From Octopus vulgaris (lineage: Eukaryota): DNA of 64,000 nucleotides. The notes beneath the pieces are model-generated. The model was not told the DNA's origin and made no database searches. It saw only the letters and a program-made list of their open reading frames with translations. Shown here piece by piece: positions 998-61,910 of the stretch. Position 1 is the first letter of the stretch; every line of letters begins with the position of its first letter. The stretch covers positions 80,042,001 to 80,106,000 of the forward strand of contig OX597827.1 in NCBI GenBank assembly GCA_951406725.2. The letters run 5' to 3'. The translations under genes were made by a program, and so were the position numbers.

Positions 998-1116
998 TCA
1001 GTTAGTAATGACATCTGGTGTTGAAGGTAACTGTCTCTCTGGAGGTTTCACATATCTGTCTTGATACTGTTGTCTTTCGGGGTTCACTGGTGTATCCTGT
1101 TGGCTACCATAGATCC
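998..1116 (-). CDS. PCDH: Protocadherin G1 terminal coding exon B (GIYGSQQDTPVNPERQQYQDRYVKPPERQLPSTPDVITN*)
   Basis: Acceptor TTTTGCAG; phase 1 matches exon A; TGA at 1000-998; homologous exon in all 8 units. Confidence 0.85.
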
Positions 1117-1272
1117 CTGCAAAACATTGTTTTAATGTAGCAATGTCAGAAACAATCACCATCATCAGAAATACTCTAGGGACACACAGACAGAACTAAT
1201 TACATCTCAGTCTACAACAATAATTAGTAATGAATTACTGTAATATTAAATGAGAATGGATTGTTGTCCTAC

Positions 1273-1426
1273 CTGACATTGCCGGTATTTCTTCATACTG
1301 TCTACTTGACCGCTCACTCCAGCACTGTCCACTGCTCTTCCGACTGGTCAGTGTGTCAGTGGGATAGTTAGAGGATGGTCTGTTGTCTCCATAAGATGTC
1401 ACCTCAATCGGTTGACTGTATTTCTG
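1273..1426 (-). CDS. PCDH: Protocadherin G1 tail exon A (QKYSQPIEVTSYGDNRPSSNYPTDTLTSRKSSGQCWSERSSRQYEEIPAMS)
   Basis: TTTTACAG|CAG acceptor, CAG|GTAGG donor, 154 bp, phase 0 to 1, open frame, conserved in 7 units. Confidence 0.85.
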
Positions 1427-3083: not shown

Positions 3084-5432
3084 CCGTGTAGATTTCTGGA
3101 GTGTTCTGTTCATTGTAGACATCTTCCAGTCATCTGGATAGTAATGGCTCCTCGAATGACCATATCTGTCTGACATCTCTCCTCGATTACCTGACATCAC
3201 AGGTACACTGTTGTTACCTTGATAGATCAACTGTCTCATCTCATTGCGACATTGGTATGCCTGTTTCTCTTCTGCTGTTCTTTCAGATGAGCTATTTCTC
3301 ACATTGTTACATCTCACAATACACAGGGTTATAGAAACCACAATAGCTATAGATACTATCACAGCTGCTACTACAATGATAATCAACAATGTCGCATCTA
3401 TTGTGTTATCACTTGGTAGGTGCACAGCTGTGAACATTGGTGACGTCTTGTTACTAACAGTCAGTGTCAAAGACACACTAGTTGTTGCTGACAGAACTGG
3501 AGTACCACTGTCTTTCACAACAAACTCAAGCTCATATGATCCGGCATCATTTTGGTAAACTGTGCGAGAGTAAGATAACACACCAGTGAACGAATCCAGT
3601 TTAAATAACTGTCTCTCGTTACCTGAAACGATTTCATACCTGAGAAAAGCATTCATGTGACTGTCTATATCAGATGCTTTCAGAACTGTGATGTCGTTCT
3701 TACTTTGCGGATGATAATGGACATTAAGAGTGAAAGGGTCAACACTAGGAAATGTAAAATATGGAGCATTATCATTTCTATCCAATACTTCCACTTCAAC
3801 ATTCACTGTGTTATTCAGAGATGGGCTTCCATTGTCTTTCACAAAAACCTCAAACTCATAGAAATCTCTGTGTTCTCTGTCTAAAGACTGGTTTGTTGAA
3901 ATAAAGCCAGAGTTGATAATCTGGAATGGCAGACGATATTGCTGTTTATTTCTCAGAGAATAAGACAATTCACCTCCCTTACCAATATCTGGGTCTGTAG
4001 CATTGATAAAGCCAATAGGGAAATTAGCTTTGTCATTCTCATAGGTAAGGAACTTGAATGTGTCTTTCGTAAAGTGTGGTTCTACATCATTCACATCCAA
4101 CACTTGGATTGACAGATCTTTATCAGTTTTCAGAGCAGGTAATCCTTTATCTTCACACGACACAGTAAAGTGATAATGTTCCTGTGTCTCTCTGTCTACT
4201 GCTTTCTTTAGAACTATTTTATATTCCTTCGATCCCATTGACTGTAGTTTGAATGTGTCATCTTTGATATGACAGTTCACCTGTCCATTGTGTCCAACAT
4301 CATTGTCAGTGACCATCACATAAGCAATGAAACTACCAACTTTGATGTCTTCCAGAATGGTGGCTGTGTTGTGATTCTGTGTAGAAATATAGTTCACATC
4401 AATATTTGGAGGATTGTTCTGCTGGTTGATGACATTTACCATAACAGTTGCTATGGAACTGAGAGGAGGGTTGCCCCCATCTCTGGCTTCAATGTATAAT
4501 TTAAATGATTTCATTTTGTCAAATTGTGATTCTTTGTTTAAGAATATTTCTCCAGTTTTCTCATTTATAATAAAATTATCTTTTGATTCTGTTGACGTTG
4601 TTGGGCTGATATAATATGAAACTTTACCATTTTCTCCAATATCAGAGTCTTCTGCCATCATTACAACAACTGGTCTATTCCTTTGATGGTTATTTTGTAT
4701 AGAGACATTGTATGTTTTCTCGGAGAAAATTGGTCTGTTATCATTTTCATCTTCCACAGTTATGTGCACATTTAAGACACCTTGTTTGGGTGGAGTTCCT
4801 CCATCCTTAGCAATCACTTCTATATTATAGCTATCTTTCGTCTCTCTGTCTAACTTTTCTTGTAATATAATTTCAAGAAAAGATACTCCGTCTGCTCTTT
4901 TGAATGTGGACAAAGAAAACTGTTGGTTACTTCCCTTCAATTCATAATTCACTAATCTGTTCTGTAATCCAACATCTTTGTCAATGGCATTGGGGATGGA
5001 CTTTTTCATACCGTTTCTATCTCCTTCTCCAAATGTTAATTGAATTTCTTCGACAGGAAACTCTGGTTGATGGTCATTGATGTCTTCTATAATCACCTTA
5101 ATTTTCAATATCTTTATAAATTTGCCTGCTTTATGAACTGCTACCTTAATTGTGTGAAAGCATTCTTTCTCAAAGGTACACAGAGACTCAGCATCCAGTG
5201 TTTGTGTGGTGTATATCTTCCCAGTGTTGGTCACATTAAACAGCTGTGTTCCCTTCTGTTGCAACTGACTGAACGATAATAATGCAGTGTCCTTTAACTG
5301 GGAATCAGCAGTAATGTCTCCTATGTTGATAACAGGACTGTTCTCTTCTTTCACATGGTAAACAATGTCTTTAGAGACAGAACAGTGAAGCAGAGACTGT
5401 AATATCCATATTGCTATTAAGACCATCTTCAT
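3084..5432 (-). CDS. PCDH: Protocadherin G1 large exon (signal peptide, EC1-6, TM, proximal tail)
   Basis: Six cadherin repeats (DxNDxxP, DRE, AxDxG), EC1 C-x5-C, TM LLIIIVVAAVIVSIAIVVSITLCIV; acceptor TTTTCAG (exon starts 5460), ATG 5432, phase-0 donor CGG|GTAAGT. Confidence 0.93.
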
Positions 5433-7294
5433 TTGTTGAGTTAAATACCAGTCAATTAATCTGAAAATAAAAAAGGTACACAACTGTCAGTCACATTACA
5501 GAAACAAATAATAGATTTTTAATAGTTATTTCGTGAATTTCATTCACAATAATTTTGTAATTTTAATTGTAATTTGGGAGTTGAGTTGTAGACAATAAAA
5601 ATATAATCCACTCCATCCCAACAAGAAGAGAAAAACTCATTTGACTTGGATCAGACGTATAATTTAACAATCAGCAAAACAAAGTGAATTGTCCATCAGA
5701 TAAAAACCCAAACCAGAACACACACAGAAGAAAGACTGATATGCGAGGAAGGATGTTCATGTGTGGAAAAAACTCTTCATTGTCTTATCCCTAACACACA
5801 GCAAAAAAGACATCTTTTATTGTCTTTCTATTTCTTCCTACTTTGCCTTTATTAACCACAATAATATCTGAGACATTACTGAAGATGATGGTGTTGGTGA
5901 TGATATTATATTTGTAAAATCTTTAACAAAGCTTCATAATATCCATTGCTATCTTTAGACAGAGGGTAAGGTAGTTGCTATTATCAGCAGATCAAGCAAC
6001 AAGATTGAAGCATGCCAATGGTTCAAAGGATGACACAGAGTTACTTTCCCCCCCTCAAAGTCTGGCATTAAAACGATATAAAACAGATTTGAGAGACAAC
6101 ATAAATAAATGGAAAAACTTGGGAATTGCTATAAAAGGTGTATTTCTCTCTATAAGGTATTTAAACAAGGTCTTTCTAGTAAAAAATATGTCTGTGTGTA
6201 ATGGTGAATATATATTTCACACAATAACTTTAAACATTTACCTTATTTAATAATGACTAATAATTTGGGGAAAAGTTAAAATCACTAGGGAAATAGGGTA
6301 GAGAGGATTGTCAATGAAGAGGTCATATTAATTTAGAGAATTGGCAATTAAGGAAAAGACAAAAAATCTAAAATTAAAACTGGTCAATATTCTTCATTTA
6401 TCTATGATTCTCATGGTTGCATTGGATCAATTTTGTAAATTGTAATTAAAAATATTGAAACAAAAAGCTAGCAACATTATATATTCTCTTCCATATACAA
6501 ATGGCAATTAAGTTACAAAAATACAGTTATTACATTTTAAATGAAATAATATATTTTACAAAAAATTAAAATTAAATTACTTTTATTTTTACAAGAAATA
6601 TTGAATGACAGAAAAAGCTCCTCATTCAATACTGGAAATCTATATAAACGGCATTTAATTAAAAGATATTCATTAAACAAGACCAAAATTGGACACTGTT
6701 TCAGTATGAATACAACAAACAGATTAAAACATATAAAATCTTATATTAAATTCAGAAAGACTTAAACAATACCACAACACAATATTGATTATTTATGTTG
6801 ACACTAAACCACCATCTTGTCAACTATTCTCCCAGTTTCACTTTAATATTTTATATTAATATAACACATTCTTACATATAAACACAATAATGATACTTGA
6901 CTCTCTCAAAACATCCTTCACAAGAAACACTCAAATTCTTTTTTAAATACACACAATAAAGAACATCTTCTGGTTATATATTATACATTATCAATACTGA
7001 TAATAATAGGAAGATGTCTGCAAATAAGAGACAACAAACTGACTGGATTTAAATATATTTCACTTGAAAAATAACCATAATTAAATATTATTTCACACTT
7101 CCTAACAGCAAAATATCAATCATGAACATATAAATCTCAACAGAAAGCGTGTAACTGGCAGAGACCATCTTTAAATGTCTACTGACATAATTTCTATTTG
7201 TTATATTCTATAGTAAAAGATGGCTGAAGAAAGTTTCTACAACAATCATCAGTCAAATATCTTAATAATACAAAATAAACATTCATAGACTTAC

Positions 7295-7680
7295 ATTCAT
7301 TGTGTGTAAAATCCTTTGTTGTATAAACTGTGACTTGGTCCCAATGTTCTGTTGTTAATGGTTGTCTGTGTCACTGCTGCTATGGTGTGACAATGGCTTC
7401 ATGTTGATGGAATAGTGTTGGTGGTGAGTCAGTGGGAACCAGCAGTTCACTCTCAGTCTTCCTTTGTGGATGTGTGGTGTTTAGTGAGTGTGTGTGTGCA
7501 TATGCGTGTAAGAGAGAGAGAGAGAGAGGAGGGATGGGTGATGCTTGCTCCAGCCTCACACACACAAGATGCTGTGTTTCCCTCAAAGAGAAGAGAGAAA
7601 GAAAGAAAGAGAACAAACAATATCAGCTCCACTAACAGTCAGCCATAAGAAGTCCATATAACACCAACATGTCTGATGTA
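7295..7680 (-). promoter_or_regulatory. Conserved leader exon/promoter cassette (probable exon 1 of G1)
   Basis: Copy of 33-420; donor ATGAAT|GTAAGT; next downstream large-exon acceptor at 5460. Confidence 0.6.
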
Positions 7681-8255
7681 GAGAGAGAGAGAGACTGGCA
7701 TAGATATATATATATATTCAGTGTTTCATACGGATCTCATATTAACAAAACATCACTGATATTGGTAAATATATTACTAACAAATGATGTTGATATAGAA
7801 CAATTCTGGTTAAGATGTGTCTGACCTAAATATACATCCAACCTATAATGGAGGATGCAGGAACAAATAGAGAAGGGATATTCTAATTTTCAGGCAGGTT
7901 TATTTTGGTATCATTTTTAAATATAATTTCCTAAGTCTTAGATTTTAATAACACTGCTGTAAAAAATAGAGAAATATATTTTAAATATATTCTAAATTAA
8001 TTTTAGATATATTTGAGAAATTTCATAAATATTATGCAAAATTCCTGTGTGTGTGTGTATTTATGGATACAAGTTGAAATCTTTCTGACTTCCAGTTAGT
8101 GTGTATGTATTGTATAGTATGCTGATATATAATATTGTAATTGTGAGGTAAAGATAAAACGTCTGTATTTTTTTAAACTTGTATGAGTGTGTGGTTAGAG
8201 GTTCGTATTTGAAATGGTATTGGTAAGGGGTCAATATTTAGTAAATGACCAGTGG

Positions 8256-8374
8256 TCAGTTAGTAATGACATCTGGTGTTGAAGGTAACTGTCTCTCTGG
8301 AGGTTTCACATATCTGTCTTGATACTGTTGTCTTTCAGGGTTCACTGGTGTATCCTGTTGGCTACCATAGATCC
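8256..8374 (-). CDS. PCDH: Protocadherin G2 terminal exon B
   Basis: Near-identical to 998-1116; acceptor TTTTGCAG; TGA at 8258-8256. Confidence 0.85.
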
Positions 8375-8544
8375 CTGCAAAACATTGTTTTAATGTAGCA
8401 ATGTCTGAAACAATTATCATCATCAGAAATACTCTAGGGACACACAGACAGAACTAATTACATCTCAGAGTATACAACAATAATTAGTACAATAATTAGT
8501 AATGAATTACTGTAATATTAAATGAGAATAGATTGTTGTCCTAC

Positions 8545-8698
8545 CTGACATTGCTGGTATTTCTTCATACTGTCTGCTTGACCGCTCACTCCAGCACTGT
8601 CCACTGCTCTTACGACTGGTCAATGTGTCAGTGGGATAGTGAGAAGATGGTCTGTTGTCTCCATAAGATGTCACCTCAATCGGTTGACTGTATTTCTG
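8545..8698 (-). CDS. PCDH: Protocadherin G2 tail exon A
   Basis: 154 bp, CAGCAG acceptor, GTAGG donor, encodes QYEEIP. Confidence 0.85.
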
Positions 8699-12269: not shown

Positions 12270-14137
12270 TTGTTGAGTTAAATACCAGTCAATTGATCTG
12301 AAAATATAAAAGGTACACAACTGCCAGTCACATTACAGAAACAAATAATAGATTTTTAATAGTAAATTCGTGAATTTCATTCACAATAATGTTGTAATTT
12401 TAATTGTAATTTGGGAGTTGAGTTGTAGACAATAAAAATATAATCCACTCCATCCCAACAAGAAGAGAAAAACTCATTTGACTTGGATCAGACGTATAAT
12501 TTAACAATCAGCAAAACAAAGTGAACTGTCCATCAGATAAAAACCCAAACCAGAACACACACAGAAGAAAGACTGATATGCGAGGAAGGATGTTCATGTG
12601 TGGAAAAAACTCTTCATTGTCTTATCCCTAACACACAGCAAAAAAGACATCTTTTATTGTCTTTCTATTTCTTCCTACTTTGCCTTTATTAACCACAATA
12701 ATATCTGAGACATTACTGAAGATGATGGTGTTGGTGATGATATTATATTTGTAAAATCTTTAACAAAGCTTCATAATATCCATTGCTATCTTTAGACAGA
12801 GGGTAAAGTAGTTGCTATTATCAGCAAATCAAGCAACAAGATTGAATCATGCCAATGGTTCAAAGGATGACACAGAGTTACTTTCCCCCCTCAAAGTCTG
12901 GCATTAAAACGATATAAAACAGATTTGAGAGACAACATAAATAAATGGAAAAACTTGGGAATTGCTATAAAAGGTGTATTTCTCTCTATAAGGTATTTAA
13001 ACAAGGTCTTTCTAGTAAAAAATATGTCTGTGTGTAATGGTGAATATATATTTCACACAATAACTTTAAACATTTATCTTATTTAATAATTACTAATAAT
13101 TTGGGGAAAAGTTAAAATCACTAGGGAAATAGGGTAGAGAGGATTGTCAATGAAGAGGTCATATTAAGTTAGAGAATTGGCAATTAAGGAAAAGACAAAA
13201 AATCTAAAATTAAAACTGGTCAATATTCTTCATTTATCTACTATGATTCTCATGGTTGCATTGGATCAATTTTGGAACTTCTAATTAAAAATATTGAAAC
13301 AGAAAGCTAGCAACATTATATATTCTCTTCCATATACAAATGGCAATTAAGTTACAAAAATGCAGTTATTACATTTTAAATGAAATAATATATTTTACAA
13401 AAAATTAAAATGAAATTACTTTTATTTTTACAAGAAATATTGAATGACAGAAAAAGCTCCTCATTCAATACTGGAAATCTATATAAACGGCATTTAATTA
13501 AAAGATATTCATTAAACAAGATCAAATATGACAGAAGTTTTAACTCAAAAGCAACATTATGCTAATACCAATAAAATCTGATACAATATTAAATTTAGAA
13601 AGACTTAAATAATACCACAACACAATATTGATTATTTATGTTGACACTAAACCACCATCTTGTCAACTCTTCTCCCAGTTTCACTTCAATATTTTATATT
13701 AATATAACCCATTCTTACATATAAACACAATAATGATACTTGACTCTCTCAAAACATCCTTCACAAGAAACACTCAATTTTTTTTTTAAATACACACAAA
13801 AAAGAACATCTTCTGGTTATATATTATACATTATCAATACTGATAATAATAGGAAGATGTCTGCAAATAAGAGACAACAAACTGACTGGATTTAAATATA
13901 TTTCACTTGAAAAATAACCATAATTAAATATTATTTCACACTTCCTAACAGCAAAATATCAATCATGAACATATAAATCTCAACAGAAAGCGTGTAACTG
14001 GCAAAGACCATCTTTAAATGTCTACTGACATAATTTCTATTTGTTATATTCTATAGTAAAAGATGGCTGAAGAAAGTTTCTACAACAATCATCAGTCAAA
14101 TATCTTAATAATACAAAATAAACATTCATAGACTTAC

Positions 14138-14525
14138 CTTCATTGTGTGTAAAATCCTTTGTTGTATAAACTGTGACTTGGTCCCAATGTTCTGTTGTTA
14201 ATGGTTGTCTGTGTCACTGCTGCTATGGTGTGACAATGGCTTCATGTTGATGGAATAGTGTTGGTGGTGAGTCAGTGGGAACCAGCAGTTCCCTCTCAGT
14301 CTTCCTTTGTGGATGTGTGGTGTTTAGTGAGTGTGTGTGTGCATATGCGTGTAAGAGAGAGAGAGAGAGAGAGAGGAGGGATGGGTGATGCTTGCTCCAG
14401 CCTCACACACACAAGATGCTGTGTTTCCCTCAAAGAGAAGAGAGAAAGAAAGAAAGAGAACAAACAATATCAGCTCCACTAACAGTCAGCCATAAGAAGT
14501 CTATATAACACCAACATGTCTGATG
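14138..14525 (-). promoter_or_regulatory. Conserved leader exon/promoter cassette (probable exon 1 of G2)
   Basis: Copy of 33-420; donor ATGAAG|GTAAGT. Confidence 0.6.
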
Positions 14526-15123
14526 TAGAGAGAGAGAGAGACTGGCATAGATATATATATATATTCAGTGTTTCATATGGATCTCATATTAACAAAACAT
14601 CACTGATATTGGTAAATATATTACTAACAAATGATGTTAATATAGAACAGTTCTGGTTAAGATGTGTCTGACCTAAATATACACCCAACCTATAATGGAG
14701 GATGTAGGAACAAATAGAGAAGGGATATTCTAATTTTCAGGCAGGTTTATTTTGGTATCATTTTTAAATATAATTTCCTAAGTCTTAGATTTTAAAAACA
14801 CTGCTGTAAAAAATAGAGAAAAATATTTTAAATGTATTCTAATTTAATTCCAGAGATATTTGGGAAATATAAAAATCACCTAACTGAGAATATTAGAGAA
14901 AAGAGGAGCGTATATAAAACATTAAGTGTGTGTGTGTGGTTTGAAATGTTGCTGACTTCACTGTTAGTGTCCATATATTCTATCATAGGTTGGAATATAA
15001 TATTGTAATTGTGAGGTAATGAGAGAAGTTATTATATTTATATTAGTTTGTGTGAGTGAGTGGGGTTGGTGGTTATTTGAAATATTATTGTAAAGGGTCA
15101 ATATTTAGTTAAATGACCAGTGG

Positions 15124-15242
15124 TCAGTTAGTAATGACATCTGGTGTTGAAGGTAACTGTCTCTCTGGAGGTTTCACATATCTGTCTTGATACTGTTGTC
15201 TTTCGGGGTTCCCTGGTGTATCCTGTTGGCTACCATAGATCC
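15124..15242 (-). CDS. PCDH: Protocadherin G3 terminal exon B
   Basis: Near-identical to G1/G2 exon B; TGA at 15126-15124. Confidence 0.85.
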
Positions 15243-15410
15243 CTGCAAAAGATTGTTTTAATGTAGCAATGTCTGAAACAATCACCATCATCAGAAATAC
15301 TCTAGGGACACACAGACAGAACTAATTACATCTCAGTCTACAGCAATAATTAGTACAATAATTAGTAATGAATTACTGTAATATTAAATGAGAATCAATT
15401 GTTGTCCTAC

Positions 15411-15564
15411 CTGACATTGCTGGTATTTCTTCATACTGTCTACTTGACCGCTCACTCCAGCACTGTCCACTGCTCTTATGACTGGTCAATGTGTCAGTGG
15501 GATAGTTAGAAGATGGTCTGTTGTCTCCATAAGATGTCACCTCAATCGGTTGACTGTATTTCTG
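15411..15564 (-). CDS. PCDH: Protocadherin G3 tail exon A
   Basis: 154 bp, CAGCAG acceptor, GTAGG donor. Confidence 0.85.
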
Positions 15565-19924: not shown

Positions 19925-20418
19925 AAACCAATGACACAACAGAGGAGGTCAAGACACATTGAAACTCCGACGTCTGGCAGCTGACTTGGCAGACACCCAT
20001 AAAATTATTAATCATCTTACATACAATAACTCTGAGCACCTTTTCAAACTCCACCCATCTAACACCCGTGGACATGTTTACAAAGTAAGAAAACAGCACA
20101 GCTCCCATGACTTCAGGAAACATTTTTTCACACTGAGAGTTGCTGAAGCATGGAACAAACTGCCGGCATCAGTTGTTAGTTGTCAGAGCACTGCATCCTT
20201 CAAAACTTCCATGCTTCCTGAGATTCGCCAACACTACACCTGATCTTCTCCCCTCCATACACACACAAGCATGTATCTGACTCATACATTGTTCGCTTTC
20301 CAGACATTTCTACATTACTGCATGTACTTTATATGCACTTTCTGACAAGTTGTGGTGCACCTGAGCACTGTATACAATAATTTCATTATTATTATTATTA
20401 TTATTATTATATTATTAT
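19925..20418 (+). mobile_element. 5'-truncated CR1/L2-clade LINE (RT C-terminus, 3'UTR, ATT tail)
   Basis: ORF 19959-20243 RRLAADL..HKII...TRGH.YKV...RKHFF..RV...WNKLP..VV....SFK is the typical CR1 ORF2 C-terminus; ends in (ATT)n. Confidence 0.85.
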
Positions 20419-23801: not shown

Positions 23802-24340
23802 TTCTTCATTAAATGAGGGATATTTTCAGTGCCAGTTCATGTCAGTGTTGTTTTATTTTCCAGATAAATTTCAAATATTAAATCAAAGTAAGTTTCCATT
23901 TGTGATAGTATTGTGTGTGACTCTAACAAACTACCTCAAATCTAAGAAGATGAGATTGCAGCTTCACACTGTCAACAACATCCTGACATGCTGCCTCCAT
24001 CTTGTTTAGTTTTGTTTTAGGTTTGGGAAGTCTTGTCTATTGATGTTCAACTTGGAGGAAAATGTTTCATCTTAAGTGGAAAGCTTCTATTGAAAATCCA
24101 TTTTAAAAGATACAAATGGAAGATATTCTATTCAGAATGGAAACCAAAGAAGAAAACAAAGTTTCCTTCTAAAGAGAATATTAAAGAGAAATAATGAATT
24201 TTCAAGCCAATAATTCTATGTCAATGTTCCCACAATTGTTAAAACTAGATCGTCCATATACATATTGTTCCTTTGTTATACTTTCTTCCTTATTTGATTA
24301 AATAAGTGAGGATCAGAGTATGAAAATGAAAACTACTTAC

Positions 24341-24745
24341 ATTCATTGTGTGTAAAATCCTTTGTTGTATAAACTGTGACTTGGTCCCAATGTTCTGTTG
24401 TTAATGGTTGTCTGTGTCACTGCTGCTATGGTGTGACAATGGCTTCATGTTGATGGAATAGTGTTGGTGGTGAGTCAGTGGGAACCAGCAGTTCCCTCTC
24501 AGTCTTCCTTTCTGGATGTGTGGTGTTTAGTGTGTGTGTGTGTGAAAGAGAGGGAGAGTGAGAGGGTGAGAGAGAAGGATGGGTGATGCTTACTCCAGCT
24601 TCATGCAAACTAGATGTTGTTTCTCCTCACACAGATGAGGCAGAGAGGGAGGGAGGGAGAGAGAGAGAGAGAGGGGTAACACACTATCAGCTCCACTAAC
24701 AGTCAGCCATGATAAGTCTATATAACACCAACATGTCTGATGTGG
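24341..24745 (-). promoter_or_regulatory. Conserved leader exon/promoter cassette (probable exon 1 of G3)
   Basis: Invariant core and donor ATGAAT|GTAAGT; flanks unrelated to other copies. Confidence 0.6.
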
Positions 24746-25112
24746 AGAGAGACTGACATAGAAATCCTTAGAACAGAGAGGTTATATTAACAAAATATGG
24801 CTGATGTTGTTAATGTGTGTAACTATAAATCCTTCATATAATATTTTAAGATGTGAGTTTAAGAAGATATTAAAGGAAAATGGCAAAGTAAATAAACTGT
24901 GTCAAATATATTTGCAATGTTTCTTTGGACTTGTAAAAATTAAAGGTTTTAACAGAAAAAGAGATTCAAGGAAAGAATTTCAGATTTCGTTTTTGGATCT
25001 GGTTTGCAAGGTTCTTTGTGTGAATTGTATTTGTAAATTTATTTTTGTATTTTGGTATTTAGAAAGAAATGAAATTTGCTTGATCTTAGTGAAACTATAA
25101 TTGTAACCTGAT

Positions 25113-25234
25113 TTAACTGGCAACAACATCTGGTGTTGAAGGTAACTGTCTCTCTGGAGGTTTCACATATCTGTCTTGGTAATGGTCTCTCTCACTGGTG
25201 CTTGATACATCGGGTGGGGCACCACCATAGATTC
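25113..25234 (-). CDS. PCDH: Protocadherin G4 terminal exon B (GIYGGAPPDVSSTSERDHYQDRYVKPPERQLPSTPDVVAS*)
   Basis: Acceptor TATTTCAG, phase 1, TAA at 25115-25113. Confidence 0.83.
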
Positions 25235-25364
25235 CTGAAATACAGAGAAATACAAAGTTTGAGTTAAAAAATAACTAAAATGCATGATAATATTTTTAAG
25301 CTTATAATAATTCTACTTGTCATTCCGTTACTTAGCCCATCAGTAACGGTTTCACATGATTAGA

Positions 25365-25800
25365 GAAAAAGAGGGAGAGAGAGAAAAGACGGAAAGAGAA
25401 AAAGAGGGAAAGAGTAGCATCCATGGTGTGAGGTAAAGGGAATGTAAAACATTTTACATGATTAGTTAATGGGAAAGAGAGGAGAAAGAAAAATGAAAGA
25501 AAAAGAGAGGATAGTGCAAAGAGATAGATAGAGGGAGAAAGAAAAAGAAGGAGAGAAAAAAAAGAGGGAGAGAGAAGCATCCATGACATAAGGTCGGGGG
25601 AATGTAATATTTATTATGTGATTAAAAAAGTTAGCTGAAGGTAGTGATGATATAGAGGAGAGTTAAAAATATAATTATAGCAGAGGGGTGATGTTCTGAT
25701 GGTGAGATTAAAGAAAGGCAGAGAGAAGAGGGGAGAGAAAGAGAGAGGAAGGAGAAAGAGAGATGATGGAGAAAGAGAGGGGGAGAGAGAGATGATGGAG
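25365..25800. repeat. GA-rich low-complexity tract
   Basis: Purine-rich runs with a short internal duplication (agcatccatg...gggaatgtaa). Confidence 0.6.
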
Positions 25801-26565
25801 GTAGTGATTGGATAGTGATAAGTGTATTTTTATTTGTAATTGAACTAAGATTTTTTTATATCATTTTATATCACTTAACGCATAAGAGCAATTCTGTGAA
25901 ATATTCATGCTTATTTTTGCGGCAGATATATGCCATTTAACTGAAAGTCATATTATATGTATGGGATATTTTCATTTTAGTTTATAGGGGATATTTAAAA
26001 ATGAGAATGAATATTTATTTAAGAGTGCTGTATATTAAGTCTATAGAATTGTGAATAAAATATATAAAGTGTGTATATAAAGTGCATTAAGTAGTCATTG
26101 CATTCCAATTCCTTTCACTCTTCAATGATTAGCAGATGAACAACTATCTTTTGATACAGACGCAACACAAGCTGCACTTTCAGGGTTTTTTAGATAACGT
26201 TTTCAAAAATAACTCAATAAGTTTGCCATTAATTCTGCGATATAATCACAGGTCCTGTTAGTACATATAATACCACATATAAACAATAACACAAAGAAGG
26301 ACGAATTAGCAATGAGAATGAAAGAAGGCTTTAGTCTTTGGTTATAAATCTGTTCCCCCTGAGGATATATTATAGATATTGAAGCAACCCCAGAATTTGA
26401 CAGGTGCTTATTTCATCAAACACAAGAAAGGTAAAGTTGATCACAACATTTAAACCTGGAACATACAGACCCATAAATACCATAAATATTTTGTTTAATA
26501 TCTAATTATTCTGCTGTTGCATACAATGGTGATGATGATAGTAATAAGAACAATAATAGCCTTAC

Positions 26566-26719
26566 CTGACATTGCTGGTATTTCTTCATACTGTCTGCTT
26601 GACCGCTCACTCCAGCACTGTCCACTGCTCTTACGACTGGTCAATGTGTCAGTGGGATAGTTAGAAGATGGTCTGTTGTCTCCATAAGATGTCACCTCAA
26701 TGGGTTGGCTGTATTTCTG
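26566..26719 (-). CDS. PCDH: Protocadherin G4 tail exon A
   Basis: 154 bp, CACCAGCAG acceptor, GTAAGG donor. Confidence 0.85.
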
Positions 26720-27527: not shown

Positions 27528-29904
27528 CTTTGTAGACTTTTGAAGTGTTCTGCTCATTGTTGATGTCTTCCAGTCTTCAGGATAGTAATGGCTCCTCGAA
27601 TGACCATATCTGTCTGTCATCTCTCCTCGATTACCTGACATCACAGGTACACTGTTGTTACCTTGATAGATCAACTGTCTCATCTCATTGCGACATTGGT
27701 ATGCCTGTTTCTCTTCTGCTGTTCTTTCAGATGAGCTATTTCTCACATTGTTACATCTCACAATACACAGGGTTATAGAAACCACAATAGCTATAGATAC
27801 TATCACAGCTGCTACTACAATGATAATCAACAATGTCGCATCTATTGTGTTATCACTTGGTAGGTGCACAGCTGTGAACATTGGTGACGTCTTGTTACTA
27901 ACAGTCAGTGTCAAAGACACACTAGTTGTTGCTGACAGAACTGGAGTACCACTGTCTTTCACAACAAACTCAAGCTCATATGATCCGGCATCATTTTGGT
28001 AAACTGTGCGAGAGTAAGATAACACACCAGTGAACGAGTCCAGTTTAAATAACTGTCTCTCGTTACCTGAAACGATTTCATACCTGAGAAAAGCATTCAT
28101 GTGACTGTCTATATCAGATGCTTTCAGAACTGTGATGTCGTTCTTACTTTGTGGATGATAGTGGACATTAAGAGTGAAAGGGTCAACACTAGGAAATGTA
28201 AAATATGGAGCATTATCATTTCTATCCAATACTTCCACTTCAACATTCACTGTGTTATTCAGAGATGGGCTTCCATTGTCTTTCACAAAAACCTCAAACT
28301 CATAGAAATCTCTGTGTTCTCTGTCTAAAGACTGGTTTGTTGAAATAAAGCCAGAGTTGATAATCTGGAATGGCAGACGATATTGCTGTTTATTTCTCAG
28401 AGAATAAGACAATTCACCTCCCTTACCAATATCTGGGTCTGTAGCATTGATAAAGCCAATAGGGAAATTAGCTTTGTCATTCTCATAGGTAAGGAACTTG
28501 AATGTGTCTTTCGTAAAGTGTGGTTCTACATCATTCACATCCAACACTTGGATTGACAGATCTTTATCAGTTTTCAGAGCAGGTAATCCTTTATCTTCAC
28601 ACGACACAGTAAAGTGATAATGTTCCTGTGTCTCTCTGTCTACTGCTTTCTTTAGAACTATTTTATATTCCTTCGATCCCATTGACTGTAGTTTGAATGT
28701 GTCGTCTTTGATATGACACTTCACCTGTCCATTGTGTCCAACATCATTGTCAGTGACCATCACATAAGCAATGAAACTACCAACTTTGATGTCTTCCAGA
28801 ATGGTAGCTGTGTTGTGATTCTGTGTAGAAATAAAGTTCACATCAATATTTGGGTGATTGTTGTGTTGGTTGATGACAGTTACCATAACAGTTGCTATGG
28901 AACTGAGAGGAGGGTTGCCCCCATCTCTGGCTTCAATATATAATTTAAATGTTTCTTCATTAAAGTTTGTATTCTTTGAGAACAATATTTCTCCTGTGAT
29001 TTTATCTAACTTGAAATATTGTTTGTTTTTCTCGAGTGTCTTTGGACTAAAATAATAAGAAATCTCTCCATTTTTACCGATATCCAGATCTTCAGCTGAT
29101 ACAATAACAACAGCTTTGTTTTTGTCTTGTGTTTTCTTTACAGAAATGTTGTATAGTTTTTGTTGAAATACAGGTAAATTATCATTTTCATCTTGAACTT
29201 CTATGTTTACCTTTAAAATACTTTCTTTGGATGGACTTCCTCCATCCTTAGCAATGACTTCCAGACTATAGTGATCTTTCACTTCTCTATTTAATTTACT
29301 TTCTAGAACAATCTCTAGTCGAGATATTCCATCAGCTCTTTTAGAAACTAATAATGAAAACATTTCCTCATTGTTCTTTAAATGATAATTAATTACACTA
29401 TTTAAAACTCCAACATCTTTGTCAATGGCATTTGGAATGGACTTTTTCATTCCTTCTCTGTCTCCTTCTCCAAACTGCAAAGTGATTTCCTTCTCTGGAA
29501 ACTCAGGTTGGTGGTCATTGATGTCTTCTATAACTACTTTAATTTTCAAGATTTTCAAGAAGTTTTTTTTTGTGAACAGCAACTTTAACTTCCTGGAAAC
29601 ATTCCTTTTCAAAAGTACAGAGGGCTTCAGCATCCAGTGTTTGTATTGTGTAGATTTTCCCACTTTCAGAAACATTAAATATCTGTGTTCCTTTAAGTTT
29701 CAGTTGATTAAACGTAATGTGACCAATGTCTCCAGATGGCACTACGTCTTGAAACTGTGGATCAGCTGTAATGTCTCCAACAAATGTATGTGTGTTTGTC
29801 TCTTCCTTTACCTTGTAGATTAAATTAAAACTGAGACAGCAGGGGAAGAAGAAAGTTAGCAAAACTGAAAAGCTCAACATATTTTCTTTTGTCAGTGAAA
29901 ACAT
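27528..29904 (-). CDS. PCDH: Protocadherin G4 large exon, frameshifted in an A9 run (assembly error or pseudogene)
   Basis: ORFs 29539-29910 (signal peptide, EC1) and 27471-29675 (rest) join at the T9 run 29563-29571; exon starts 29927, ATG 29904 or 29880, donor AAG|GTAAGT. Confidence 0.85.
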
Positions 29905-30320: not shown

Positions 30321-32573
30321 CAATAAGGTGATACATTTAATTAAATATATCTAATTAATTATAGCAATTGAGTGAACTAAATTGGTTGATATATTGCGAC
30401 AAAAACTTAGTTTACTAGCAGAGGAATGAGAGAGAGAAAGAAAAACCAAACAAAACATTAAACACTCCCCACAGGACATGAGAATCTGAACATTTATTGT
30501 CTGCAATTCTACAGCAGAGTTTGACAAGATGATGTATTCTTACACTATTAAAGTCAATTTCATCTAATTACATTGTCTCACTTATTGTAATTCTTATGCA
30601 ATTAACTGGAGGATGCAATTAAAGGAAATCACAGTTTGATAAACATACAATTTTATATACCAGTGATATATCTTTCAGTAATGAAAGCTTCTTGGCAAAG
30701 GAAAGAGTCTATAGGATATTAAATTGATTTTCTATAACATATAAACAGTAAGAGTCATTCATTTACTTAGAAACACAAATCATAGTTCTAGATATTTTAA
30801 TATAGTGAAAATAAATATGTTATTTCCAGTAAAGATTATTTGTTGTGAAGCCTCTATCAGTTTTGACTCAACATGTAGCTTGTTGATCTAAAGGGGTCAA
30901 ACACTCACCTAATTGAGGACCATGCATTTTGGTGTATATATATTTGTTTTGGTTGATATTGCTTATTCCTCAAATCAACTATGATCCAATAGGCCTACCA
31001 TTAAAGACATTCCAGTTGTGACCATCCTCTTGCCAGATGTGTCTTGCCATTTTTAAGATAGTGAAGCGTAATAGGAAGGAGATTTAGCTGCTATTTCTAG
31101 TAGGTCTAATAACAATGTAGAAATTCCATCATTGACATTCAGTGGTTTATTGTATGGAGTGCAATGCAACAGTCTGGAAATATTACCGTTGTTCCAGTGT
31201 CCATTATATTCCTCCAAGTTCTGGTGAGGCCAATCACATGAACTTAGAGTTTGACTGTGATAGGTTTCCTATACAGCTTTGCTGATGCATCTCAACAGTG
31301 TTTGGGATTAAAGAGGTTATTGGTTTCACTACCATCTTTGGTGAAGGCGTCATTTGTGTGTATCTGGGATAAAGCAGGAGTATAATGTGCCAAGAATGGT
31401 AGAGTCATGGTTTTCTAGAGTTTTGTAGATGTGTCTGGGTGTTTGAGAATGATGGAACATGTAATAGCTTGCAACAATAGTAAACTGTACTCTTCATGTG
31501 TCCATGAAGTTTTAAATGTAACTGACTTATCAAAAATAATAGCCAAATCTTCCTCAGAATTTCCTTGTCCTAAGCAAGGAATATGGCTTGAAAATTCAAG
31601 TCCAAAAGGTAATTTGCCTGGAAAGAAGACAGCATGGTTATGTGTGGAATGTCAAGTGAATGTTTTTCTAGTTGGACATTTTTATTTGAAATATTACAAG
31701 AACTATGTTCTGGTAATATCCATTGTACCATCACTTCCTCTGGGAGAGAAATACACAGATGTAATTGACAAGTTAACCTTAATAAATAATCTTCTTATAA
31801 AATCTTACGCAAGCAGTGTGACACTTCATAATGAAAGTGATAAGCCAACCTTCTTCGTATCGTACATTAAATGGCATGTAATTACATTGAATTAAAACAG
31901 CTGAAAATTTATAATTTCTGAAATATATTCATTTGGTTGTTAAAATTAATTTGATAGATTTAATTATTATTTGCAATTATTAAAAATATTTTTAGCAAAC
32001 AGAAAAAAATATATTTACTTCACTAATAAGGAAATACATATAAAAAAAACCCCACATATTTTCTATGCCATCTTACAATTATCAATGATAAACAATTTCA
32101 AAACATTCTTTTAAAACTCTATCATCATTGTATTTGTAATAAACACGACAATAATCTTATAATATCATTATATGAACATAAAAGGTATATCAAATATTGA
32201 GGAGAAAGTATGAAGTAAAACAAACTGCTATAACTTTCTCTATTGATTATCTTTTTATAACAGACCGGCCATTTTATATAAAAATACTGCAAAGTCTACA
32301 ACAGAAACCTGACAGTACTCTTGAGAAAAAGATTTTTTTTAATATTTTAAAATGCTGAAACACAAGATGTTATCATACAGGCTTCTATAATATTGACATA
32401 AACAGAATCTAAGAATGAATTACATAATAATGTATAAAATGAAAAATCTTCACATAATGTTTTCTTTTCACAATTCCTAAAAAGAAAAACGTTTTACGTT
32501 TAAAATATATTTATTTCTCATTGATAATACAAGAAATACAAAAAAGAAAACGAACAAAACTGAGACTACTTAC

Positions 32574-32900
32574 ATTCATTGTGCATAAAATCCTTTGTTG
32601 TATAAACTGTGACTTGGTCCCAATGTTCTGTTGTTAATGGTTGTCTGTGTCACTGCTGCTATGGTGTGACAATGGCTTCATGTTGATGGAATAGTGTTGG
32701 TGGTGAGTCAGTGGGAACCAGCAGTTCCCTCTCACTCTTCTCTGTGGATGGGGGATGTTTAAAGCTGTGTGACTGTGTAAGTGCTACTTCCAGCCTAAGT
32801 CAGGCTAGATGTATTTTCTCTCAGTGTGAAGTAAGAGAAACAATATCAACTCCTCTAATAATTTTACCTGATAAGTCTAGATAATACGAACATGTCAGAT
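32574..32900 (-). promoter_or_regulatory. Conserved leader exon/promoter cassette (probable exon 1 of G4)
   Basis: Invariant core 32574-32735 and donor ATGAAT|GTAAGT; upstream part more diverged. Confidence 0.6.
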
Positions 32901-33426: not shown

Positions 33427-33551
33427 TCAGTTAAGTATTATAACATCTGGTGTTGATGGCAATTGTTTTTCTGATGGTGTTACATACCTCTCTTGGTTCT
33501 CTTGCAGCTCCTCACTACATGTCGATGTGTTGGCCTGTATACCACAAAGCC
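33427..33551 (-). CDS. PCDH: Protocadherin G5 terminal exon B, divergent (GLCGIQANTSTCSEELQENQERYVTPSEKQLPSTPDVIILN*)
   Basis: Acceptor TTTTGCAG, phase 1, TGA at 33429-33427. Confidence 0.8.
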
Positions 33552-33643
33552 CTGCAAAACAGCAGACAATAGAAAACATGGAGCAATCCTTAATGTACCT
33601 CATATAACATCAAGACTACAATTGAAAAATAGCCCTTCTCTAC

Positions 33644-33779
33644 CTGATGATACTGCTGGTATTTCTTCATAGTGTGTACTTGACCCTTCACTCCAGCACT
33701 GTTCACTATCTTTATGATTGCTCAACATGTCAGTGGGGTATTCAAATGATGTCACTGCTACCGGCTGACTATAGTTTTG
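33644..33779 (-). CDS. PCDH: Protocadherin G5 tail exon A, divergent (QNYSQPVAVTSFEYPTDMLSNHKDSEQCWSEGSSTHYEEIPAVSS)
   Basis: 136 bp, acceptor TTTCACAG, donor CAG|GTAGAG, phase 0 to 1. Confidence 0.8.
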
Positions 33780-42505: not shown

Positions 42506-42797
42506 AATATAAATTCCATAAAGATGCTCTGAATTGATTGTATTTTATTTTTTGAAATTCTGTGTTATTCTTCAAATATACTTCTAATATCAATTTCTTA
42601 TATTGTCACAAGACTCCATATATGTAAAGGAGGAGGTCCTGCCAATTGAACTGGGTTTGAGGAAATACCTTGTATTTATTCTCTTGCTTCAGGAGGGATG
42701 AAAGGCAAAGTTGATTCTGGAGTAATTTGAAAACAGAATATGGAGATGAAAATAAATATTGACACCCAAGGAAATATTTATGAAAATATAAACTTAC

Positions 42798-43172
42798 ATT
42801 GATTGTGTAAAATCCTTTGTTGTTATAAATTGTGACTTGGTCCCAATGTTCTGTTGTTAATGGTTGTCTGTGTCACTGCTGCTATGGTGTGACAATGGCT
42901 TCATGTTGATGGAATAGTGTTGGTGGTGAGTCAGTGGGAACCAGCAGTTCCCTCTCAAGTCTTCCTTTGTGGAAGGGTGGTGGCTTGAGAGTGTGTGAGA
43001 GTAAATGTGTATAAGTGTGTGTTTGTGTGAGAGAGACTCGAGTGATGCTTACTCCAGCCTCACTCAGAGTAAATGCTCTGTTTCCCTAAACATAGAGCAA
43101 AAGATAAGGGGAACATACAATATCTGTTCCCTTAAGAGTCAGTTGCAAAAGGTCCATATAACACCAACATGA
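42798..43172 (-). promoter_or_regulatory. Conserved leader exon/promoter cassette (probable exon 1 of G5)
   Basis: Invariant core; donor ATCAAT|GTAAGT. Confidence 0.6.
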
Positions 43173-43674: not shown

Positions 43675-43793
43675 TCACTGATTTACAACATCTGGTGGTG
43701 AAGGCAACTGTCTCTCAGGGTTTTTTACATATCTCTCTTGGTATAGTTGTCTTTCATTATTGGCTGACATATCTGATTGGATAGTGTAATGTC
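43675..43793 (-). CDS. PCDH: Protocadherin G6 terminal exon B (GHYTIQSDMSANNERQLYQERYVKNPERQLPSPPDVVNQ*)
   Basis: Acceptor TATTTTCAG, phase 1, TGA at 43677-43675. Confidence 0.82.
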
Positions 43794-44160
43794 CTGAAAA
43801 ATAAGAAATATATCAACACCATTGGTCATTTCACCAAACATTTCAATTGAGATTTCATTATTTTAATCCACTCTATGATATTTTATTTAATTTAGATGAG
43901 TTTTTATGCTTTCTAAGAGGCAATGACACAAATGAAAAGGAAATAATGATATTAATAAATGTATATTTATATTTCTAAATATAACTTAAAAAACCTAATT
44001 TTCTCCAAGAAATTTACACACAACTATCATATATATTACACTGAACTCTCAGATTAAACAGACAAAATACATGAGAGTAGAAAATATGCTTCTTCAAAAT
44101 TTTCAAAAACTCTTTAGTAATACCACTTATATGAAAAGAAGAAATTACAAAATCTCTTAC

Positions 44161-44311
44161 CTGACATTGCTGGTATTTCTTCATACTGTCTACTTGACCG
44201 CTCACTCCAGCACTGTCCACTACTCTTACGACTGGTCAATGTGTCAGTGGGATAGTTAGAAGATGGTCTGTTGTCTCCGTAAGATGTCACCTCAATGGGT
44301 TGACTGTATTT
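44161..44311 (-). CDS. PCDH: Protocadherin G6 tail exon A (lacks the first Gln)
   Basis: 151 bp, acceptor CTCATCAG, donor GTAAGA. Confidence 0.83.
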
Positions 44312-45916: not shown

Positions 45917-46107
45917 GGAGTAAACACATAAATGTGAAACAAGGTGGGAAAAAGAGTACTCAAATACCAGAGGTTGAGTAATATGCTTTATTTAAAAGCA
46001 GCAGAAACTTAATAAAAGCTGTTACTTGGAGTTTCACGTTCCCGTTCGTCGGGAACGTGAAACTCCGATTAACAGCTTTTGTTAAATTTCTGCTGCTTTT
46101 AAATAAA

Positions 46108-46148
<41 letters not shown>

Positions 46149-46183
46149 TATATGTATATATACATATATATATATGTATATAC

Positions 46184-46255
<72 letters not shown>

Positions 46256-46277
46256 GTATATATGTATACATATATAC

Positions 46278-46318
<41 letters not shown>

Positions 46319-46322
46319 TGTG

Positions 46323-46357
<35 letters not shown>

Positions 46358-46587
46358 GTATACATATATACATACATATATACATATATATGTATACATA
46401 TACGTATACATATACGTATATACATATATATATATACATATATACATATATATGTATACATATAATATATATATATATGAAGGCATATATATTTATATGT
46501 ATATGTACATATATATGAATGTATGTATATATGCATGATGTATGTGTATATATGTACATATATGTTAAGATAAATATTCTTGGAAGT

Positions 46588-46640
<53 letters not shown>

Positions 46641-46670
46641 CATATATATATATCATATATATATACATAC
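45225..46670. repeat. (TA)n/(TACA)n/(CA)n microsatellite field
   Basis: Tracts at ~45225-45530, 45850-45913 and 46109-46670. Confidence 0.9.
45914..46108. mobile_element. Putative Penelope-like fragment with foldback, inserted in (TA)n
   Basis: 59 bp arms 45986-46044 / 46050-46108, 5 nt loop, hammerhead-like GACGA-ACG-GGAA-CGT-GAAAC. Confidence 0.5.
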
Positions 46671-46850
46671 AGTCAATTCAAATAAACAAGTGAAATTAAC
46701 AGATAACAAAAGGACATGCACAAGAAATGTATAATTAGCTTAATGCTCGATTAAAATTGAGAGATTAACACTTCGAGCATAGCTCTTCATTGGAAAGGAG
46801 AAAGGGAAAAGTCCAAAGAGAGAAAAGAAATCACCAACAGTTGGTGTCTA

Positions 46851-51905: not shown

Positions 51906-53031
51906 ATAGTAATATTAAATTTTTAGAATAAAATAATCTTAGTTCATCATAGAAATAGTTGTGATAAAGAAAATGGAGTATGGTATGGTCACAATGAAGT
52001 CTGATGGTAATAATTTCAATTTACTTGTATCTCTAACAACATTAGAACAACCTACCAAATCCCATATTTTTTCTTCAATAAAGACAATAGAAATAATCAC
52101 CTATTGATGGATACCCTTAATTATGTAACTTCAGACATTTGACCTCCATTATTGAGTAAAATAAAAGCAAATATACACTAAAATAAATAAAAATCTTAGT
52201 AATGGAACGACATCACTCGTCACTGACATATCTGCTAATTAATAGTTTCAATTTATAAAGAAATAACCAAAACAGGAAAATAGCAAACTAAATTCTTTAA
52301 TTTCAAATCAAATTTCACCACAGTTGACTCTACCTAATTACAGGTATGAAGAGACAACACTAGAAACATACAGGTGTTGATTCAGTCAAATATAAGTAAA
52401 ACACTAACCAGCAAAATTAAAATTGTTAGCATAAATTAAAAAAACTAAAACATTTGTTCAAATCTAGGTTAAATTATTTTAGTTAATAATTATTACTAAT
52501 TGAAACATGGATAAAATCTAAGATATTGTTATATTTAAGAAATTTAAATCTTCATAGAAGACAGCATTTTAGGAAAGTAAATGACAAAGCAGCAATCCAT
52601 TTCCTTTACGTACTGTTTCCTTCCGTTCTTTAACAAATAAGTGTCTCATGAGGATACAACAAAACAAATGTATGTATTGAAAATAACTGAAATATTTGGA
52701 TCTCAGTTAATAAAAGTATATTACAAACTGAGGACTGAGAAATAAAAGCTAAAAAGAAAAGGCCATTTGTAAAGAGATAAAAATATGGATATATTAGGAT
52801 AAGTAATAAGGATTTTGTGGCAAGTTGAAATGAATCAACATGAAGAACTATAGAGAAACACAGAAACATTTGGAATAAAAAATGGAAAAGACAAAGGAAA
52901 TTCTAAATATAATCAAAAGATTTTTCCTTTATGAGAATCTAAATTAGAAATTTGTTAGTTTTGTAATAAAGAAAATATATAAATTTCATAATGTAAATTA
53001 TACAGGAATATAATATTAATGACAGACTTAC

Positions 53032-53390
53032 ATTTATTGAGTAAAATCCTTTGTTGTATAAACTGTGACTTGGTCCCAATGTTCTGTTGTTAATGGTTGT
53101 CTGTGTCACTGCTGCTATGGTGTGACAATGGCTTCATGTTGATGGAATAGTGTTGGTGGTGAGTCAGTGGGAACCAGCAGTTCCCTCTCAAGTCTTCCTC
53201 TGTAGATGTGTGATGTTTAGTGAGTGTGTAAGTATACGAATGTGTGTGTGTGTGAGATGGGTGATGCTTATTCCAGTTTCACTCAGACTATTTCCCCTCA
53301 CACAGAAGAAGAAAGAAAGAATACAGAATATCAGCCCCACTAACAGTCAGCCATGTTAAGTCTATACAACACCAATATGTCTGATGTAGA
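53032..53390 (-). promoter_or_regulatory. Conserved leader exon/promoter cassette (probable exon 1 of G6)
   Basis: Invariant core; donor ATAAAT|GTAAGT. Confidence 0.6.
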
Positions 53391-54271: not shown

Positions 54272-54387
54272 TCAGTTGTTTATAACATCAGGTGTAGCAG
54301 GGAGTTGTCTTTCTGGAGGTTTCACATATCTGTCCTGGGGCAGTTTCTCAGTGTTGGCTGTGGGGTCCTGTTGCATACCATAGATAG
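54272..54387 (-). CDS. PCDH: Protocadherin G7 terminal exon B (AIYGMQQDPTANTEKLPQDRYVKPPERQLPATPDVINN*)
   Basis: Acceptor TGTTTCAG, phase 1, TGA at 54274-54272. Confidence 0.82.
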
Positions 54388-54473
54388 CTGAAACATATAC
54401 AATGGTAATACATAGAGTCAGTTTTGTATATTATATTTATCCTTGTTATTCTCTTAGTTTAAACTACCCTTAC

Positions 54474-54627
54474 CTGACATTGCTGGTATTTCTTCATACT
54501 GTCTACTTGACCGCTCACTCCAGCACTGTCCACTGCTCTTACGACTGGTCAGTGTGTCAGTGGGATAGTTAGAGGATGGTCTGTTGTCTCCATAAGATGT
54601 CACCTCAATCGGTTGACTGTATTTCTG
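54474..54627 (-). CDS. PCDH: Protocadherin G7 tail exon A
   Basis: 154 bp, CAGCAG acceptor, GTAAGG donor. Confidence 0.85.
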
Positions 54628-61788: not shown

Positions 61789-61910
61789 TTAACTGACAAC
61801 AACATCTGGTGTTGAAGGTAACTGTCTCTCTGGAGGTTTCACATATCTGTCTTGGTAATGGTCTCTCTCACTGGTGCTTGATACATCGGGTGGGGCACCA
61901 CCATAGATTC
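61789..61910 (-). CDS. PCDH: Terminal exon B of protocadherin G8 (rest of the gene lies beyond the right edge)
   Basis: Near-identical to G4 exon B (…ERQLPSTPDVVVS*), acceptor TGTTTCAG, TAA at 61791-61789. Confidence 0.8.

Follow-up and report, generated by a model that had tools for sequence, protein, structure and literature searches.

Octopuses possess well over a hundred protocadherins, which arose by an expansion independent of that in vertebrates and in which no vertebrate tail motifs were found, and their intracellular partners have been called unexplored (PMC6339937). What the cytoplasmic tails of these proteins might bind is the question raised by a stretch of 64,000 nucleotides of the Octopus vulgaris genome (contig OX597827.1, positions 80,042,001 to 80,106,000; hereafter the window), in which seven protocadherin genes, together with the final exon of an eighth, lie on the minus strand (G1 to G8). 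Each gene runs from a 5' non-coding exon through one large exon, encoding six cadherin repeats, a membrane helix and some 80 residues of the cytoplasmic part, to two small tail exons, A and B. Exon A encodes a tyrosine motif, YEEIP, that is a predicted phosphotyrosine ligand of SH2 domains, and exon B encodes a proline motif, [RK]QLPxxP, that is a predicted class I ligand of SH3 domains.

The preliminary description of this DNA had read QYEEIP (HYEEIP in G5) from exon A and RQLPSTP, KQLPSTP, RQLPSPP or RQLPATP from exon B, roughly 30 residues further on, and had proposed that the two motifs form a docking module for Src-family kinases. Both readings hold: YEEIP is present in all seven copies of exon A in the window, with His in place of Gln in G5, and the four variants of the proline motif were recovered exactly in the eight copies of exon B. 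The two motifs lie in one chain in 7/7 complete genes, and the distance from the Tyr to the basic residue of the proline motif is 34-37 residues. No exon A belonging to G8 was found within the window.

The tail exons are spliced in the frame that the preliminary description had assumed. In G1 the large exon ends at a phase 0 donor (3084), phase 1 is shared by the end of exon A and the start of exon B, and reading across the three exons meets no stop in any of the seven genes. Transcripts of G1 were checked in contigs from 4 of 20 listed sequencing runs, which we guessed to be RNA, with depth left unused. The joint between exons A and B occurs in contigs of three of these four runs and the joint between the large exon and exon A (1426/3084) in contigs of two, both with GT-AG ends, and cover of the introns is near zero except for one repeat-like stretch. 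The same tail is found in named Octopus and Argonauta gene models, which together with the contig joints bears out the splicing. Tandem acceptors at the start of exon A (1423-1426 in G1, and likewise in G2-G5 and G7) mostly read CAG CAG, with a single CAG in G5 and G6, and gene models occur both with and without the first Gln of this exon. Intronic positions 2410-2569 show high contig depth in all four runs, have a second partial copy at about 20324-20392 and are probably a dispersed repeat.

The Y-E-E-I sequence lies in a cytoplasmic and likely disordered segment, a FoldIndex-type score being negative along the whole length of the tail. A sequence search of the PDB with exons A and B returned no matches, the best score in a search of the ESM Atlas was 0.79, under chance level, and no Pfam tail family was matched in the four octopod proteins scanned.

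Conservation of the motifs beyond the window was surveyed in public gene models. We pooled 125 octopod protocadherins (42 from a first set, 75 new ones from the best 120 of 2217 matches, and 8 from a 50% library search), dropped four fused models of more than 1250 residues, and obtained 55 groups by clustering the remaining 121 tails at an identity of 60%. It should be noted that this sample leans towards relatives of the queries and contains octopods without squid or cuttlefish, and that cluster counts measure retention and not independent origins, as the clusters share ancestry. The tyrosine motif in the form YE[ET][ILMV], a pattern widened after the data were seen, occurs in 38/55 tail clusters (1000 shuffles: mean 0.54, maximum 5), and strict YEEIP occurs in 18 (shuffle mean 0.01). 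The motif Tyr is located 113-169 residues from the membrane (median 129), and the best-kept columns in an alignment of 54 tails are the motif Glu (42/46) and the Tyr itself (41/47). The same pattern was found in none of 57 control tails from other cadherin-superfamily proteins, which were taken from the 50% library search, whose matches are mostly Fat/Dachsous-like. Across the 54 divergent octopod tails the tyrosine motif is thus better conserved than its flanks, and the predicted SH2 ligand is a shared element of octopod protocadherin tails. Upstream of the Tyr, S-G-H-x-W-S-E is also kept family-wide (1319-1340 in G1 and the corresponding positions of its relatives; DSGHGWSE in several proteins), the Asp being lost in window genes G1-4, G6 and G7; this element may represent an eroded core of the delta-protocadherin CM1 motif or a beta-TrCP-type degron.

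Within the window itself, conservation has to be read alongside gene conversion. The seven gene pairs compared are 98-100% identical in DNA over approximately 1.2 kb near the 3' end of the large exon (about 3234-4434 in G1, and its counterparts), a pattern indicative of gene conversion. The identical part comprises the later cadherin repeats, the membrane helix and the juxtamembrane part, while the first repeats diverge, and conversion appears to leave out these first repeats, the presumed recognition end. The protein encoded by exon A shows no amino-acid change among G1, G4, G6 and G7 and is invariant throughout when G5 is set aside, and the YEEIP codons carry one synonymous change in seven genes. 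Because exon A is invariant outside G5, the sequences of the window do not suffice to set YEEIP apart. What is conserved in exon B is a block of 17 residues, [DE]RYVxPxE[RK]QLPxxPDV, and divergence is confined to the 5' half and the last residues; the ratio of nonsynonymous to synonymous differences (pN/pS) among five distinct genes is 0.23 for RQLPxxP, 0.22 for DRYVKPPE and 0.47 for the 5' half. The claim that the proline motif is kept through synonymous changes while the rest of exon B diverges is therefore correct for the motif, at a pN/pS of about 0.2, and incorrect for DRYVKPPE, which is kept equally well. Motifs no better conserved than their flanks had been named in advance as evidence against the docking module; this is half of what is seen in the window, and it is the family survey that separates the tyrosine motif from its surroundings.

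These data bear on the suggestion that the motifs are retained by gene conversion, or as a GAAGAA splicing enhancer, without any function in the protein. The near-identity of the 1.2 kb of exon 1 is in line with this suggestion, as are the almost invariant YEEIP codons, which contain GAAGAA near the donor. However, the motif survives across tails that form 55 clusters at 60% identity, GAA and TAT are the commonest codons here for Glu (119/185) and Tyr (81/120), and exon B combines synonymous divergence with its low pN/pS, and we consider a purely passive origin very improbable. Gene conversion as the sole cause of motif retention is largely refuted by the family survey.

The proline motif has a narrower distribution. 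The class I SH3 pattern [RK]x[LIV]PxxP occurs in 19/55 tail clusters (shuffle mean 0.77), 15 of which read [RK]PLPx[LIVA]P, and in every tail with both motifs it lies at most 8 residues from the C-terminus. Isoform look-ups for 30 proteins gained the SH3 motif in two more clusters, raising the number with the pair to 17, and the tyrosine motif in one; the SH3 motif was absent from every short-tail gene checked in these look-ups. Its carriers fall into two groups, namely the window lineage, with a spacing between the motifs of 27-35 residues, and a lineage of long tails that terminate in KPLPA[LIV]PK, with a spacing of 63-115. In ectodomain trees the window lineage is nested among genes with the tyrosine motif only, via branches of 96, 99 and 100% support, although the nesting is weaker on the first three repeats alone. 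A single clade of all SH3 carriers is rejected by the approximately unbiased (AU) test (p = 0.0003; 30 of the 55 rows, with the tested group defined by motif after a first tree had been seen). That the carriers do not form one clade suggests that the motif was gained twice, was lost repeatedly or was moved by exon exchange, and, with the root of the ectodomain tree not resolved, the trees are compatible with all three histories. A Y-x-K-P element stands before or overlaps the SH3 motif in both carrier groups and is also retained by a relative with a short tail, a hint that the groups had a last exon in common, which would have been rebuilt in the window lineage. The putative SH3 ligand is, by its distribution, a lineage-specific addition.

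The best reading of the tails, in our view, is that a Src-family kinase uses both motifs, a proposal to which we give an even chance. Taken separately, the tyrosine motif is likely to be an SH2 docking site and the proline motif quite likely to bind some SH3 domain; all of these estimates are a matter of judgement. QYEEIP agrees with the SH2 ligand of polyomavirus middle T at 6/6 residues, and the middle-T YEEI peptide is bound by the SH2 domains of Fyn and Src, with a dissociation constant of 0.55-0.8 uM for Src (PMC2585567, PMC3514216). Likewise, ERQLPSTP shares 6/8 residues with the Src-SH3 site of FAK (PMC6528292), and RQLPSPP of G6 shares 6/7 with the SH3 site of p130Cas (PMC2956669). The correspondence of both motifs to documented Src-family ligands, on which the original proposal was built, is upheld by these comparisons. 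Src-family kinases also act downstream of an adhesion molecule, apCAM, in the growth cones of Aplysia (PMC2150837). According to the proposed mechanism, clustering of the receptors by adhesion would be the first step, after which the SH3 domain of the kinase could bind RQLPxxP with no need for phosphate. The recruited kinase would then phosphorylate the Tyr of YEEIP, and its SH2 domain would lock on pYEEIP, displacing the internal brakes and keeping the kinase active at the contact. Paralogs with the tyrosine motif only would require phosphorylation in trans, with weaker binding. We infer this succession of SH3 capture, phosphorylation and SH2 locking from sequence by analogy with FAK, for which it is established, and any effect on neurites would be a further prediction of the same kind.

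Several observations weigh against the joint use of both motifs by a Src-family kinase. The 55 tail clusters divide into 15 with both motifs, 23 with the tyrosine motif only, 4 with the SH3 motif only and 13 with neither, so that the pair as a common family output, as originally suggested, did not hold up, and its universality is ruled out. The close paralog P0037, and also P0038, keep YEEIP but break PxxP, and the spacing from the Tyr to the SH3 motif varies from 27 to 115 residues across the family. In the window the SH3 motif surpasses the 5' half of exon B in conservation but only equals the adjoining DRYVKPPE. Seven of the 38 tyrosine motifs read YET, which is a weaker Src match than YEE, and the matches listed include no protein from squid or cuttlefish. 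In FAK the SH3 site (363-375) comes before the tyrosine (397), and the octopod order is reversed (PMC6528292). Arrays also showed binding of the YEEIP peptide to Nck1, Shc1, Fer and Brk (PMC2585567, PMC3514216). Finally, the Thr before the last Pro in RQLPSTP fits ligands of RIM-binding protein (RIM-BP).

This last point leads to a different explanation, in which the motifs act separately, RQLPxxP binding RIM-BP at presynaptic active zones and the tyrosine motif binding an SH2 protein. RQLPSTP is identical at 6/7 residues to RQLPQTP, the RIM-BP site of CaV2.2 (PMC10814857, PMC3945931), and an SH3 domain of Aplysia RIM-BP binds RxLPxxP, for which the Leu is important (PMC10657410); that the pair is not obligatory in the family agrees with separate roles. 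On the other hand, the tyrosine motif is kept in 15 of the 19 tails with an SH3 motif. The other carrier lineage, moreover, has Lys in KPLPA[LIV]P, which is nearer to the Src class I consensus, and separate action of the two motifs seems to us doubtful.

The array results would also suit a partner from outside the Src family, such as Nck/Dock or a Tec-family kinase, with SH2 and SH3 domains, or the SH2-only Fer or Shc, that would link the receptor to actin. Dock links fly Dscam to actin, ligands of the KPLPPxP type are carried by Tec-family kinases, and the window block contains a second Tyr in YVKP, which has the YxxP pattern. Yet Pro is at pY+4, not +3, in 29/38 tyrosine motifs, and Nck ligands less typically have a class I orientation. 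The second Tyr is replaced by Phe or Leu in 4/16 long-tail motifs, so this position looks hydrophobic and not phosphorylated. A partner of this kind is accordingly judged improbable. It is similarly unlikely that the tail controls trafficking, with YEEI as a YxxPhi clathrin-adaptor sorting signal and LPSTP as a proline-directed phosphorylation site. YEEI, YEEL and YETL all fit the YxxPhi consensus, Gly is the commonest residue at -2 (16/38 tyrosine motifs), and PSTP fits a MAPK site; however, a YxxPhi signal leaves the Glu at +1 (the 42/46 column), the Glu or Thr at +2 and the Pro at +4 unexplained, and S/T-P is missing from KPLPA[LIV]P and from G6, which keep the basic residue, the Leu and both Pro.

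Docking to a Src-family kinase could be extended to a family-wide octopod output, in which an ancestral phosphotyrosine exon received an SH3 ligand twice independently and would be turned off by skipping of exon A or by adenosine-to-inosine (A-to-I) editing of the Tyr to Cys; we rate this extended scheme as a small chance. Skipping of exon A is predicted to put exon B out of frame, leaving a stub of 10-23 residues with neither motif, and the paralog isoforms P0259 and P0361 fit such skipping, 19/19 residues being explicable by a single exon translated in two frames (shuffles reach 7 at most). The joints listed for the G1 contigs include no skip from the large exon to exon B, and the differences listed include no A-to-G change at the Tyr codon; the contigs drop rare variants, and both negatives carry no weight either way. 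As to editing, the GenBank entry P0114, a record lacking a contig and probably derived from a transcript, differs from the genome model P0212 at 1/852 residues, namely the motif Tyr, which is Cys. This is an A-to-G type change at a position where models from four species have Tyr. It is one case, noticed because the motif was broken, and in three similar pairs of entries only 2/11 differences are of the A-to-G type; A-to-I editing is possible, and the difference may also be an allele or an error. A real loss of the Tyr in P0114 was rejected, since the loss is not seen in genome-based models.

Coordinates of the features are collected in the table below.

Table. Protocadherin features located in the window (position 1 is the first letter of the 64,000-nucleotide stretch).
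Feature	Positions	Strand	Basis or remarks
G1 large exon (exon 1): six cadherin repeats, transmembrane helix, ~80 cytoplasmic residues	3084..5460	-	Pfam on 99% identical P0004
G1 exon A	1273..1426	-	tandem acceptors 1426/1423; phase 0 start, phase 1 end; contig joints
G1 YEEIP, predicted phosphotyrosine SH2 ligand	1283..1297	-	family conservation
G1 exon B, coding part up to stop codon	998..1116	-	splice sites, contig joints
G1 conserved 17-residue block DRYVKPPERQLPSTPDV	1010..1060	-	pN/pS by segment
G1 RQLPSTP, predicted class I SH3 ligand	1016..1036	-	motif match, family survey
G2 exon B (8256-8374) and exon A (8545-8698)	8256..8698	-	
G3 exon B (15124-15242) and exon A (15411-15564)	15124..15564	-	
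G4 exon B (25113-25234) and exon A (26566-26719)	25113..26719	-	
G5 divergent exon B (33427-33551, KQLPSTP) and exon A (33644-33779, HYEEIP)	33427..33779	-	
G6 exon B (43675-43793, RQLPSPP) and exon A (44161-44311)	43675..44311	-	
G7 exon B (54272-54387, RQLPATP) and exon A (54474-54627)	54272..54627	-	
G8 exon B	61789..61910	-	
Repeat with 5' non-coding exon and donor, upstream of G1	7283..7683	-	contig loose end at 5462; copies elsewhere

The window genes are tandem, same-strand duplicates of whole genes, each with its own tail exons, that have been homogenised by gene conversion, and the named proteins nearest to theirs belong to Octopus sinensis, O. vulgaris, O. bimaculoides and Argonauta hians. 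Contigs join a copy of the 5' non-coding exon to the G1 acceptor at 5462. In addition to the tabulated copy, such exons lie upstream of genes at 14126-14530, 24335-24747, 32568-32784, 42788-43171, 53024-53390 and 60825-61255, and a copy at 21-420 is part of a further gene beyond the start of the window. An ATG at the end of the 5' non-coding exon would start a very short upstream frame in G1. The first cadherin repeat of G4 is frameshifted within nine consecutive T (A in the coding sense) at about 29564-29572, which is either an assembly error or the mark of a pseudogene, and a long TA-rich simple repeat at about 45960-46680 is a source of spurious open frames. Among the surveyed paralogs, P0274, P0308, P0325 and their kin have long tails with the conserved elements D[VI]I[DN]LKS (12/55) and W[ND][LM]P (14/55), and P0115 has a 451-residue tail made of repeats of approximately SSSQFYFVLEPQNEW, apparently a multiplied piece of the end of exon 1.

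The motifs themselves are textbook, and what is new is their location and the breadth of their retention. We found no paper joining YEEI with protocadherins and none on tail motifs in cephalopods other than those cited here, although an earlier mention is possible in Albertin 2015, its supplement or Wang and Ragsdale 2017, and no treatment of protocadherin tails was found in the available parts of PMC9068888 and PMC9795677. The tyrosine motif is a conserved and apparently undescribed element of octopod protocadherin tails, and its presence in about 70% of the tails sampled provides concrete targets for testing, namely a residue, a class of partner and a mutation. If docking of a Src-family kinase is true, it would provide the first testable idea of how the adhesion proteins of octopus nerve cells signal inwards.

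Comparison with known systems places the window genes close to the clustered protocadherins of coleoids (Albertin 2015, 2022; Styfhals 2019), which are likewise head-to-tail multi-exon genes with six cadherin repeats that arose by full gene duplication with gene conversion (PMC9068888), and with which they share one transmembrane helix and a large first coding exon. The octopus-specific motifs of Albertin 2015, as relisted in the available part of PMC6339937 (Table S2), comprise only EC1, EC5, EC6, TM and PP1 patterns and include neither tail motif. With respect to the motifs, FAK and p130Cas resemble the octopod tails in combining a class I PxxP and an SH2-binding tyrosine in one chain. The octopod carrier, however, is a cell-surface receptor, and Src binding is demonstrated for FAK and Cas and predicted for the octopod tails. 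An SH3 site some 25-30 residues upstream of the SH2 tyrosine, as in FAK and Cas, was not found in the octopod tails, which lowers their membership in that class but not the claim that they work alike. Middle T, identical over the six residues of QYEEIP, has a phosphorylated tyrosine, whereas octopod phosphorylation is predicted and the octopod variants include YEEL and YETL. The RIM-BP ligands of CaV2 channels and RIM follow the pattern RxLPxTP, identical to RQLPSTP at six of seven residues, whereas the second octopod lineage uses Lys; these ligands are not known to be paired with a YEEI-type tyrosine.

Vertebrate alpha-protocadherins bind Fyn. Reviews of vertebrate protocadherins name FAK, Pyk2 and WIRS among tail partners and motifs, and in the clustered and delta-protocadherins many ectodomains lead to a shared output tied to the tyrosine kinases FAK and Pyk2 (PMC7339444, PMC7811963). 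The tail features of vertebrate delta-protocadherins, namely a PP1 site, WIRS and a Pfam tail family, were not found to characterize the octopod tails: WIRS is not enriched (7/55 tails against a shuffle mean of 8.9), and the PP1 pattern occurs in 1/55, at chance. Vertebrates share constant exons by splicing, whereas each octopod gene owns its tail exons, and, if the proposed docking is true, cephalopods and vertebrates would have converged on many ectodomains with a shared tyrosine-kinase output by way of different gene architectures.
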